From Bacteroidaceae bacterium (lineage in GTDB: Bacteria > Bacteroidota > Bacteroidia > Bacteroidales > Bacteroidaceae), in the NCBI GenBank assembly GCA_017450985.1, contig JAFSSN010000057.1:1-39780 (forward strand): DNA of 39,780 nt, read 5' to 3'. The position numbers were made by a program, and so were the translations under genes. Positions 1,531 to 34,106 of the stretch are shown here, one piece after another (the stretch's first letter is position 1; each line of letters begins with the position of its first letter). Below the pieces are notes generated by a model that did not search any database, had not been told where the DNA came from, and saw only the letters and a list, made by a program, of their open reading frames with translations.

Positions 1531-1566
1531 ACGGTCGGCTCCCTGACGAGGGTGCATAGACATACA

Positions 1567-1616
1567 AAAATACTCGTGATGCTATACGTTATCTGCATCA
1601 CGAGTATTTTCGTTTT
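1567..1616 (+). terminator. Rho-independent terminator after the dehydrogenase
   Basis: Perfect 14-bp stem aatactcgtgatgc / gcatcacgagtatt, 12-nt loop, T-rich tail ttcgtttt. Confidence 0.7.
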
Positions 1617-1660
1617 ATGTAATGAAGAGGGGCGATTCGCGTAATATGGAGCTTCACATC

Positions 1661-1870
1661 GCTTCATGAGTTTTTGTGCGTCACTTCATGAAAGCTTTTG
1701 TTGTGCGTCATGAAAACCTGTATGTCATGTCATGTGAAGACTCACGCTGCTTCATGAAGTTCTGTGCGTCACTTCATGAAAGTTTTTGTTGTGCGTCATG
1801 AAAAACTGTATGTCATGTCACGTGAAGATTCACGCTGCTTCATGAAGTTTTGTGCGTCACTTCATGACGT
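1661..1870. repeat. Tandem repeat, 88-bp period, about 2.4 copies
   Basis: gcttcatga recurs at 1661, 1749 and 1837 (exactly 88 bp apart) with near-identical flanks. It lies in a convergent intergenic gap. Confidence 0.9.
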
Positions 1871-1935
1871 TTTTCTTATTGCGTTACGAGGAGTTTCATT
1901 TCGCGCACCGTCGATGCATACTCCCTGCGCCTTTG

Positions 1936-9095: not shown

Positions 9096-9324
9096 TTCGC
9101 ATACGGCAACCATACGTTTATAAGAATGTTTCTTGTTTCGCAAATGCCCAACTTGTAAAATTATCAGATTATGAGTGTATGTAACACTAAAAACAAACGC
9201 ACATTTACCACATAACAATCGCAATAACACGGTCTTAATTTCCGTACGAAGCTTCAGTTTCCTCAACAAGACACGACGAAACTGAAGTTGACGGAAGTTG
9301 AGTTCGTCAATAATGCAACGAACC

Positions 9325-9445
9325 TTCTACGCACCTTCTACGGGTATTCTACGGATATCCTACGGATGTTCTACGGCTTTTCTACGGGTACAATCCGTAG
9401 AAATGCGGAGAAAAGCCGTAGAATATGCGGAGAGAATGCGGAGGA
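9325..9445. repeat. Dispersed iteron element, copy A
   Basis: Six direct TTCTACGG units spaced exactly 11 bp apart (9325-9390), then CCGTAGAA x2 interleaved with TGCGGAGA x3. Confidence 0.85.
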
Positions 9446-9808
9446 AACCTTAGTCAGTCACGGTGAGGTATCAGAAAAGAGTTATCTATTTTTTAAGTTT
9501 AAGAGTCACGATGACTATAGATTTGCATCTACAAATATAGTAATTTTTCACTTTCAAAACTAATGTAAGAATATTTTTTTCATCTGCCATGCAGTCTTTG
9601 AAGCCTTGACGGCATCCATATAAGTGAAGAGCCAGTCAAGTAAGGACGTGGCACTTCATTTAGGCTTAAGGCTGTTACTGGCAATTAGCTTCAGAGAGGC
9701 TCAAGTGTTTTGCTAAGCAGACGTATGCCACAAACACGCATAAGCGCAACGAGCTATGACGCCACACACGCCACGCCGTCATGTGTAACTTTTTAAAACA
9801 TAATCGAT

Positions 9809-20141: not shown

Positions 20142-20594
20142 ATGGCAACTAAAATTAGATTGCAGCGTCACGGTCGCAAGAACTACGCTTTCTATTCAAT
20201 CGTGATTGCTAATGCAGACGCACCACGTGATGGTCGCTTTATTGAGAAGATTGGTACATACAATCCAAACACAAATCCTGCAACTGTTGATTTGAACTTT
20301 GAACGTGCTCTCCATTGGGTACTTGTAGGTGCACAGCCAACAGACACAGTACGCAACATTCTCTCAGACGAGGGTGTATATCTTAAGAAGCACCTCCTCG
20401 GTGGTGTTAAGAAGGGCGCATTCGACGAGGCTAAGGCTGAAGAGAAGTTCGCTGCCTGGAAGAAGGAGAAGGCTAACAAGGCTCTCGCTATCGCTGACAA
20501 GAAGGCTGCTGACAAGAAGGCTGACGCCGCTGCACGTCTCGAGGCTGAGAAGAAGGTAAACGCTGCCGTAGCCGCTAAGGTTGCGGAGAAGTAG
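20142..20594 (+). CDS. rpsP: 30S ribosomal protein S16 with Ala/Lys/Glu-rich C-terminal extension
   Basis: [21 protein letters not shown]...GTYNP is the canonical S16 core. The ORF ends at TAG 20592. The same frame stays open for 27 more Ala/Glu-rich codons to TAA 20676-20678. Confidence 0.93.
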
Positions 20595-20740
20595 GCTGCC
20601 GCTGCTGCCGCTAAGGCTGAGGCTGAGGCTGCCGCTGCAGCAGAGACTGCAACTGAGGAAGCACCAGCAGAGGCTTAATCAGGCACAAGGTAGAATGTAA
20701 CTATGAGACCCAGCGTCTCACTCTTACAAGATACGGAAAT

Positions 20741-20776
20741 AAGGGGAGGTTCTGTGGAGAGACCTTCCCTTTTTTA
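20741..20776 (+). terminator. Probable rpsP terminator
   Basis: Stem aaggggaggt / accttccctt (one G-U pair), 11-nt loop, then TTTTT. It lies downstream of both the TAG and the TAA. Confidence 0.5.
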
Positions 20777-20985: not shown

Positions 20986-21125
20986 TTCTACGGAAATCCT
21001 ACGGTAATTTTACGGTAATTCTACGGATTTCTACGGATAAAACCCGTAGAACACTCGGAGAACACCTGAAGAAAATGCGTAGAACACTCAGAGAATGTTC
21101 GGAGCAGAGTCGAAGCAGACTCGGG
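20986..21125. repeat. Dispersed iteron element, copy B
   Basis: Five TTCTACGG-like units at 10-11 bp spacing, then CCGTAGAACACTCGGAG, GCGTAGAACACTCAGAG and CGGAGCAGA. It shares an exact 22-mer (aaaacccgtagaacactcggag) with copy C. Confidence 0.85.
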
Positions 21126-33368: not shown

Positions 33369-33505
33369 ATCATTACGTTTTCTACGGGTATTCTACGAGT
33401 ATCTTACGCATTTTGTACGGATTTCTACGGATAAGACTCGGAGAAAACCCGTAGAACACTCGGAGCGAACCCGTAAGACATCCGGAGAAACAGCGGAGCA
33501 GACAC
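33369..33505. repeat. Dispersed iteron element, copy C
   Basis: Five to six TTCTACGG-like units with 11-bp phasing, then CCGTAGAACACTCGGAG, CCGTAAGACATCCGGAG and CGGAGCAGA. It is in the same orientation as copies A and B. Confidence 0.85.
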
Positions 33506-34106
33506 GATGCAGTCCCCTAAACGAGCAGACAAAAATCCGTGCCGCGAGTTTTGCAAAAAAACAGAAATGATGCTTCATGTTGTTTTTGTTCTTTAGTCAT
33601 CAGACATTAACGTTAACAGCACAAAGATACATATTTCATTTATAACGTCCAAACGGAACCGACATTTCTTGTTGCAAGCATGGAGTGAAATAACAGAAAA
33701 CATATTTGAGTGCGAAACTGTCCTGCCACGCAGAAACCATCATTCCCGAAGCATGGGACTTTCAAGATTCGGGGCACAGTCATTCATTTGCGAAGAAATA
33801 ATAAGGCTGTAATTGCGTAAGAAAAACTCTTCAGTTAGAAAGAAAAAGTTCCTTAGTTGGGCAGGCATAAACATTTATCAGAACGGGGATAAAACAAAGC
33901 CTCCTTCAAGGCTGCCGACAACCTTCAAGAAGGCAAACGAAAAAGGCGATACTTACATGCAGAAAACCTGCATAGAAGTATCGTCTTTATATGTAATGCC
34001 TTACGGCCTGTAATCTATCCTTTTCACATCAGCGAAAGATGCATAAGCCAACGCAGCATAGTCACTTTGCTCAGCCTCAGCCCTCCCCCGCTCTCCCGTG
34101 CGGAAA

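Follow-up and report, generated by a model that had tools for sequence, protein, structure and literature searches.

Investigating a stretch of 39,780 nucleotides from a Bacteroidaceae bacterium (contig JAFSSN010000057.1 of assembly GCA_017450985.1; the whole stretch is referred to as the window), we observed a short element at three intergenic sites, each copy of about 130 bases being built of five to six direct TTCTACGG units, 10-11 bp apart, followed by four to five inverted CCGTAGAA/CGGAGAA units. It is this direct-then-inverted, convergent arrangement and not a direct array that defines the element, making each copy a long imperfect palindrome. Most likely, the element, itself gene-less, is related to little-studied selfish cassettes with a gene for a four-helix-bundle protein between two inverted arrays of short units, and it is neither a replication origin nor an operator. 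The three copies and their parts are:

Copy A: 9314..9447, plus strand; sequence read directly, Tandem Repeats Finder (TRF), phased-unit scan, nhmmer profile.
Copy A, left arm: 9325-9387; six direct 11-bp units with TTCTACGG cores.
Copy A, loop: 9388-9394; gtacaat.
Copy A, right arm: 9395-9445; inverted CCGTAGAA, CGGAGAA, CCGTAGAA, CGGAGAG and CGGAGG, spaced about 10-12 bp.
Copy B: 20986..21125, plus strand; sequence read directly, TRF, palindrome scan, nhmmer profile.
Copy B, left arm: 20986-21036; five units, of which the fifth is spaced 10 bp.
Copy B, loop: 21037-21043.
Copy B, right arm: 21044-21125; CCGTAGAA, CGGAGAA, TGAAGAA, GCGTAGAA, CAGAGAA, CGGAGCAG and CGAAGCAG.
Copy C: 33380..33512, plus strand; sequence read directly, TRF, palindrome scan, nhmmer profile.
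Copy C, left arm: 33380-33430; five units, of which the fifth, like in copy B, is spaced 10 bp.
Copy C, extra CGGAGAA unit and loop: 33431-33448.
Copy C, right arm: 33449-33512.

With at most one mismatch, TTCTACGG occurs 46 times in the window against 21.8 +/- 4.1 expected, and a phased pattern of two units occurs 17 times against 0.34 expected, a count reached by none of 100 shuffles. TRF reports period-11 arrays at all three sites, and an nhmmer profile built from copies A-C detects in the window these three and no others (E 1e-35 to 1e-45). Direct reading, phased-pair counts and profile thereby bear out what an earlier, sequence-only reading of the window had proposed, namely a dispersed repeat of one architecture at three intergenic sites in one orientation. 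The profile scores of the copies on the opposite strand are lower, so that the element is an asymmetric palindrome whose orientation can be defined; all three copies share it, which at three of three (p=0.25) is not significant. In the left arm of copy A, the units start at 9325, 9336, 9347, 9358, 9369 and 9380, with cores in the order TTCTACGC, TTCTACGG, TTCTACGG, TCCTACGG, TTCTACGG and TTCTACGG; the 11-bp phase is strict in this arm only, the fifth unit of copies B and C being 10 bp. The perfect 8-bp hairpin, which the same reading had seen between the last direct and the first inverted unit of copy A, is present at 9380-9402 (TTCTACGG-gtacaat-CCGTAGAA).

The palindrome arms of the window copies are 24-44 nt long and 71-88% complementary (44 nt at 75% in copy A, 24 nt at 88% in copy C), their loops measure 7-18 nt, and the spacers between the cores are mixed and not complementary between the arms. 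Predicted folds of copies A, B and C reach z values of -6.0, -2.7 and -3.0 as plus-strand RNA (-54.2 kcal/mol for copy A) and of -6.9, -3.1 and -3.7 as DNA (-32 kcal/mol for copy A). Copies B and C have in common the derived 10-bp fifth unit, 'ggatttctacggataa', followed by 'ggataa(a/g)ac', which points to one already gene-less master copy and not to an independent origin in place.

The same family is found in other Bacteroidales. One genome per species was scanned for TTCTACGGNNNTTCTACGG; most of the matches listed are due to chance (about 280 are expected in 596 Gb), and among them are at least about 28 true elements from nine rumen, gut and faecal Bacteroidales metagenome-assembled genomes (MAGs). 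All Bacteroidales elements are convergent, direct units being followed by inverted ones, and they are composed of two alternating unit types, gTTCTACGGtt (TTCTACGG) and gTTTAACGGtt (TTTAACGG), around a loop close to TTTAAA, the outermost units fading into GC-rich 11-mers (ctccgtacccc ... ggggcggtgaa). Several members are near-perfect hairpins of 50-60 bp with 90-96% self-complementarity, and the predicted RNA folds of relatives are strong (-98.6 kcal/mol, z -16.8, at locus L072; -113 kcal/mol, z -19.7, at L062). The window profile matches the relatives over nearly the whole length of the profile with E values of 1e-9 to 1e-20, scores that the repeated units inflate. The spacer trinucleotide is genome-specific (TTG, TAT/TAC or TCG) or, as in the window, mixed. 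Four copies from MAG RGIG6831 could be aligned as an element of about 150 bp with common ends. Members of the family are intergenic, often 6-25 bp past a stop codon, and the intergenic regions carrying them are co-directional in 9 cases, convergent in 8 and divergent in 3, small counts resting on crude open reading frame (ORF) calls. Gene-less arrays occur about once per 20-40 kb in the fetched loci, and three times in the 40 kb of the window.

Two further arrangements were seen at such loci. At L018 (160-260), an 11-bp array runs in one direction only, its unit shifting from ACTTCTACGGT (twice) through ACTCCTGCGGA to ACTTGTGGGGT (five times). At L064 (553-894, RUG061), a TTCTACGG element is adjoined by a different family resembling repetitive extragenic palindromic (REP) sequences, with several GC-rich hairpins of the 'atggaaccccgacggggttccat' type that have conserved flanks and occur in both orientations.

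The connection to four-helix-bundle genes is given by an Acidimicrobiia MAG, in which (locus L069) six to seven direct and six inverted GTTCTACGG units of 11 bp bracket an ORF of 128 aa. This ORF belongs to PF05635, the '23S rRNA intervening sequence protein' family (E 7.5e-25), and also to the TIGR02436 four-helix-bundle family; another locus of the same MAG, L024, holds a gene-less hairpin version. L069 was found through the TTCTACGGNNNTTCTACGG search pattern and hence is subject to ascertainment; the architecture was then tested on independent PF05635 loci. For this, 80 metagenome loci with a PF05635 alignment were fetched, 72 of which had sufficient flank. Comparison of the upstream flank with the reverse complement of the downstream flank gave a median score of 42, with scores of at least 35 in 47 of the 72 loci; as controls, pseudo-genes displaced by about 1.2 kb within these loci had a median of 19 and a maximum of 33 (none of 37 at 35 or above), and shuffled as well as direct-orientation flanks score about 20. 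The repeat period of the cassette arms is 7 nt in 16 loci, 8 in seven, 9 in five, 10 in four, 11 in two, 12 in two and 13 in one. In 31 of 41 loci the PF05635 gene has the orientation of both its neighbours, and on Prevotella-type contigs it lies inside operons, on the operon strand: one such gene is situated between a HAD/serB-like gene and mutY, another between mlaE and the gene for an mlaF-like ATPase, both flanked by inverted arrays of short units.

The units themselves differ among cassettes. In L120, an arm of four GAAGTTAAA units faces its exact reverse complement; L112 is a further example read directly; in L018, the PF05635 gene (1558-1923, minus strand) is flanked by inverted GTTAAT(T/G) heptamer arrays; and on plasmid pNPUN02 of Nostoc punctiforme the four-helix-bundle gene NPUN_RS35280 is flanked by arrays of GGAGTCA heptamers, a cyanobacterial type. 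The cassettes of L130-139 combine GGAGTTCN units with a 'gacaaatg' foot, and their left arm (about 2430-2990) consists of a 55-bp block of units plus 'gacaaatgcttttaa', which is present in 2 to more than 8 copies depending on the strain. Several of these scaffolds have N-gaps exactly at the left arm, from which it follows that this arm changes rapidly in length, by expansion and contraction, and disrupts assembly. The Bacteroidales PF05635 protein has numerous homologues, a large share of which is found only on contigs of 0.5-2 kb; this agrees with a break-up of short-read assemblies by the flanking repeats, and both the abundance and the context of the family are probably under-represented in MAGs. 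A separate observation concerns L080 (3802-4419, Acidimicrobiia MFD01275), where some 530 bp between convergent TTCTACGG arrays contain no recognisable PF05635 ORF; this may be a degraded cassette or one with a different cargo.

A self-palindrome scan over all fetched loci revealed many gene-less convergent arrays with other unit types. The one at L062 (2501-2595) has GGAGTTCA units and the gacaaatg foot, that is, the arm type of the L130-139 cassettes; the one at L144 (1391-1557) adjoins a cassette with identical GGAGTTAAA units; L149 is a further clear gene-less hairpin, and from the scan listing alone L022, L091, L094, L098, L166, L172, L189, L198 and L209 are candidates. How such forms arise can be followed at the mlaE|mlaF junction, which was compared across related Prevotella lineages with MlaF proteins 84-100% identical and is found in four states:

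Empty: 18-bp spacer (L259-261).
Full cassette: L130-139.
Gene-less remnant: 146 bp, GGAGTTCGGGA ... CTCCTGAACT around a loop of about 30 nt (L254-257).
Solo pyrimidine-rich arm: 62 bp (L258).

These states show the cassettes to be insertions from which gene-less arrays arise; at the junction, the spacers are too diverged for the insertion boundaries to be read.

The following scheme can be proposed. By its architecture, the element would belong to a widespread but little-described superfamily of selfish cassettes. A full-length cassette comprises an array of 7-13-nt units, the PF05635/TIGR02436 (S23p) gene and an inverted array, and gene-less forms would either have lost the interior or have been copied on their own. 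In the gene-less form two arms of one unit of about 11 nt, in opposite orientation, abut across a short loop, and either single strand, DNA or RNA, could fold back on itself as a long hairpin. Where the cassette is complete, its arms may pair in the host transcript into a double-stranded RNA stem cut by RNase III, by analogy with the intervening sequences (IVSs) of 23S rRNA, and such cutting would make a sense-strand insertion inside operons or rRNA tolerable. In the 23S rRNA IVS of Coxiella burnetii, terminal inverted repeats form a stem that RNase III cuts, the loop holds an S23p ORF, and tandem heptamers (GACAGAT) vary in number between strains; S23p-bearing IVSs are found in Coxiella burnetii, Leptospira, Brucella and Xanthomonas (PMC4990558). 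The non-rRNA PF05635 cassettes surveyed here follow the same plan, and the window element resembles it in its terminal inverted repeats, in the long stem around an interior and in the short tandem repeats of the arm region; both count as selfish and as tolerated within transcripts. Unlike S23p IVSs, however, the window element lacks an ORF and is located in intergenic chromosomal DNA rather than in helix 25 or 45 of the rRNA; its arms consist wholly of 11-nt units, its stems are decayed and any RNase III processing is putative.

Regarding their age, copies A and B are fixed and stable among the strain contigs recovered and are not recent insertions. Six further contigs from strains of the same species carry copy B, with point substitutions only; copy A is present in one other (L227), with one base different within the element, in the loop, the remaining four differences of the 401-bp alignment lying in the right flank. 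The gene flanking copy C has no exact match on record, hence there is no strain comparison for this copy. Since copies A and B are fixed among strains and the stems are partly decayed, the three window copies probably are old, fixed relics.

The window element thus has inverted terminal arms (71-88% complementary, compared to 90-96% and z values of -17 to -20 in relatives) and arms of short tandem repeats (TRF period 11, the cassettes having 7-13 and two of them 11), both hallmarks of an IVS-like cassette superfamily. Several results weigh against placing it there. There is no PF05635 gene between the arms of the window copies, nor a PF05635 match anywhere in the window, so that the element can only be a gene-less derivative of the kind documented at mlaE|mlaF, L062 and L144. 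A full cassette with the TTCTACGG unit is missing from the same lineage: no Bacteroidales cassette with such arms is among the approximately 100 PF05635 loci searched, and neither TTCTACGG nor TTAACGG arms flank a PF05635 gene in these loci or in 24 viral contigs. The sole case is L069 in Acidimicrobiia, hence the link is architectural and depends on one cross-phylum, pattern-selected example. No target-site duplication was detected in the four aligned RGIG6831 copies and none is evident at the window copies, which leaves classical cut-and-paste mobility unsupported. An empty site was found for none of the three copies; for copy B it was sought via pyrF homologues (86-93% identity), around which gene order is not conserved in relatives. 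The arms in the window pair poorly and their spacers are non-complementary, with the 8-bp cores conserved, which fits sequence recognition better than a pure hairpin constraint. Finally, the four-helix-bundle protein is not known to have a catalytic activity.

This protein is a relative of Avd (weak NF033474 match), and Avd works with a reverse transcriptase in diversity-generating retroelements. A bolder extension, which we consider speculative and rather improbable, is that PF05635 genes, as Avd-like pentamers, together with inverted arrays of 7-13-nt units form a cross-phylum class of mobile elements that are copied in an undescribed way: the units would be recognised by the small protein (about five per arm per pentamer), an RNA or hairpin intermediate might serve, and gene-less arrays would be non-autonomous passengers. 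If this were true, 23S rRNA IVSs, the convergent heptamers of Xanthomonas and part of the short tandemly repeated repetitive (STRR) sequences of cyanobacteria would fall into one scheme.

Conservation of the cores also speaks for an alternative that we hold to be possible, though distinctly less probable than a descent from cassettes: a phased array of binding sites on double-stranded DNA, whose 8-bp core TTCTACGG is recognised by a sequence-specific protein. The 11-bp spacing would place the sites on one face of the helix and the inverted half would make the nucleoprotein complex symmetric; the binder might be a repressor, a nucleoid protein, a factor resembling a transposase or recombinase, or else the four-helix-bundle protein. 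Cores indeed diverge far less than spacers between copies B and C (5/40 vs 7/11 differences, p=0.0015) and between A and B (3/40 vs 8/11, p=3.5e-5), the comparison of A and C not being significant; however, register shifts between repeated units can yield the same contrast. Likewise, the core is constant in nine genomes with a genome-specific spacer, but this identity is imposed by the search pattern and the argument hence is circular. The exact phase of the left arm of copy A would suit such an array, and the earlier reading had taken 11 bp as a helical turn; the units of the architectural relatives, however, measure 7-13 bp, most commonly 7, and phasing is therefore not general. A layout reminiscent of a protein-loading site is seen in a viral contig (L238, 3263-3576, IMG/VR UViG_3300031867_005300), with nested convergent TTCTACGG arrays around an AT-rich core of about 100 bp, just upstream of an ORF which by eye only resembles a terminase small subunit; these arrays may be an inserted mini-element or a loading site (ori or pac/cos-like). 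Against a common binding function stand the different contexts of the three window sites (co-directional, convergent, antisense to both neighbours), the lack of an adjacent DNA-binding gene, and the many family members that are near-perfect hairpins, spacers included.

Less probable again is an RNA hairpin that, transcribed within neighbouring mRNAs, would serve the host by stabilising 3' ends, by offering RNase III a site for processing or by acting as a barrier to transcription, similar to REP sequences and bacterial interspersed mosaic elements of enterobacteria. The frequent location shortly past stop codons and the excess of co-directional and convergent over divergent regions would be expected of it, with the reservation on counts and ORF calls made above, and IVS stems are proven RNase III substrates (PMC4990558). 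Copy B is preceded by the pyrF stop (21206, minus strand) and followed by a terminator-like hairpin on that strand (20870-20839), and so probably lies in the pyrF 3' untranslated region. Copy C, however, is antisense to both neighbours and lies beyond the terminator-like site of the upstream-transcribed minus-strand gene, so that it probably is untranscribed; copy A is flanked by co-directional plus-strand genes, and orientation to the flanking genes thus varies over the three sites. The stems in the window are, moreover, weak and interrupted, and the conservation of copies A and B among strain contigs, otherwise in favour of such a role, is no higher than that of the flanking intergenic DNA.

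The sequence-only reading had laid emphasis on iterons, integrase arm sites and operators. Tandem phased short repeats do look iteron-like, but an iteron-type origin, or an arm-site cluster of an integrated mobile element, is effectively refuted: instead of a single locus next to rep or dnaA with an AT-rich unwinding element a stretch of 25 kb holds three convergent, palindromic copies among housekeeping genes (rpsP, pyrF, rnf, S41 peptidase, NusB, YajC), none of them next to a gene for a rep protein, an integrase or a transposase; other MAGs contain dozens of copies, and copy A has no BLASTN match in plasmid and phage collections.

Other candidates were rejected as well: a CRISPR array, the units being contiguous with no spacers of that kind between them; a coding remnant, there being no conserved frame; and a strict 23S rRNA IVS in helix 25 or 45, as Rfam at gathering threshold finds no rRNA in the window and the sites lie between protein-coding genes. 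Altogether, the Rfam 15 search proposed earlier returned 0 matches at gathering threshold, and in E-value mode only sub-threshold generic miRNA-hairpin models (best mir-135, 25.6 bits against a threshold of 59.2). The earlier reading had not recognised the element as a described Bacteroidota repeat family, and in agreement with this there is no match in Rfam, in plasmids, in phages or in the open-access literature.

Comparison with known dispersed elements gives a mixed picture. Like MITEs (miniature inverted-repeat transposable elements), the window element is 100-150 bp long, gene-less, dispersed and intergenic, has inverted ends and has gene-carrying relatives with the same ends. Unlike MITEs, it has no target-site duplication, its 'ends' are whole subunit arrays meeting in the middle of the element, and the full-length relatives carry a gene that is no known transposase; in the partners with analogous ends the four-helix-bundle protein is all that is encoded, and a transposase-encoding autonomous partner was not found. 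With the REP/REPIN-RAYT system (PMC3116915) it has in common the abundance of extragenic palindromes without target duplication and, in detail, a GTAG tetranucleotide inside each inverted unit (CCGTAGAA); REPs, however, are single imperfect palindromes of 20-40 nt (PMC3116915) and the window element is made of arrays of non-palindromic 11-mers. No RAYT gene turned up near any copy, with no systematic RAYT search across genomes. Intergenic short tandem repeats are also known as cyanobacterial STRR sequences and as the Xanthomonas GGGAATC heptamers, the latter forming 70-75 convergent pairs per genome that are capable of stem-loops or cruciforms (PMC4692102; PMC4679880). The Xanthomonas unit differs in having 7 nt and in being G-rich, and has been read as G-quadruplex-forming (PMC4692102), compared to the 11-nt Bacteroidales unit with its TTCTACGG core. 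Neither paper mentions 'helix bundle' or 'intervening' (nor does PMC4692102 mention 'S23'), thus neither links heptamer repeats to four-helix-bundle genes.

In the open-access literature, we found no description of the Bacteroidales 11-nt repeat family and no statement that inverted arrays of short tandem repeats generally enclose PF05635 genes; the closest described things are S23p-bearing rRNA IVSs (PMC4990558) and the Xanthomonas convergent heptamer pairs (PMC4692102). Elements as frequent as these (three in 40 kb) break metagenome assemblies and attract spurious ORF calls. One architectural superfamily around a four-helix-bundle gene would provide an annotation rule and a hypothesis for the long-unexplained origin of 23S rRNA IVSs and of bacterial intergenic heptamer arrays. 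Should the small protein or RNase III act on the arms, they would be natural modules insulating or splitting operon transcripts in gut bacteria such as Prevotella.

A probably spurious ORF call of this type is found over copy A:

Mechanical ORF over copy A: 9288..9563, plus strand; 91 aa, TTG start.

It has no Pfam family, and no ORF of at least 80 aa crosses copies B or C, so that it very likely is an artefact, in agreement with the earlier reading. That reading had also pointed to a candidate box for an antisense promoter, TAtaTTTG (9532-9539); a TTTG lies 15 nt upstream of it, the usual spacing in Bacteroidetes promoters being longer. Sigma-70 promoter scans around the copies found no promoter, the sigma-70 model not covering Bacteroidetes promoters. 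Directly left of copy A, at 9236-9320, there is a weak hairpin (GCTTCAGTTTCC...GGAAGTTGAG / CTGAAGTTGACGG, DNA fold z -2.2), whose GAAGTTGA-like units look similar to those in the arms of PF05635 cassettes and which may represent another element in a more decayed state; Rfam in E-value mode has a sub-threshold hairpin match at 9237-9318.

All three copies lie between protein-coding genes; the neighbouring proteins are a sigma-70-region-4/beta-barrel protein, ribosomal protein S16, orotidine monophosphate decarboxylase, an S41 peptidase and an endonuclease/exonuclease/phosphatase protein. The nearest homologues are named Prevotella or Bacteroidaceae MAG proteins, and GC skew is negative over the whole window, which places it within one replichore. 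A separate 88-bp tandem repeat (1661-1874; 2.4 copies, 92% matches) is located intergenically after a hairpin at 1575-1612; it is composed of CTTCATGAAG palindromes, GTGCGTCA motifs and a TGTCACGTGAAGA segment and is unrelated to the TTCTACGG element. The gene rpsP has a terminator, identified by eye only, at about 20737-20775, and its 3' end varies among strains: in the window and likewise in two strain contigs, a TAG (20592-20594 in the window) in the Ala/Glu-rich C-terminal tail ends S16 at 150 aa, and four other strain contigs (among L114-L119) have AAG instead, S16 running to 178 aa. The difference in length is a stop-codon polymorphism in a low-complexity tail.

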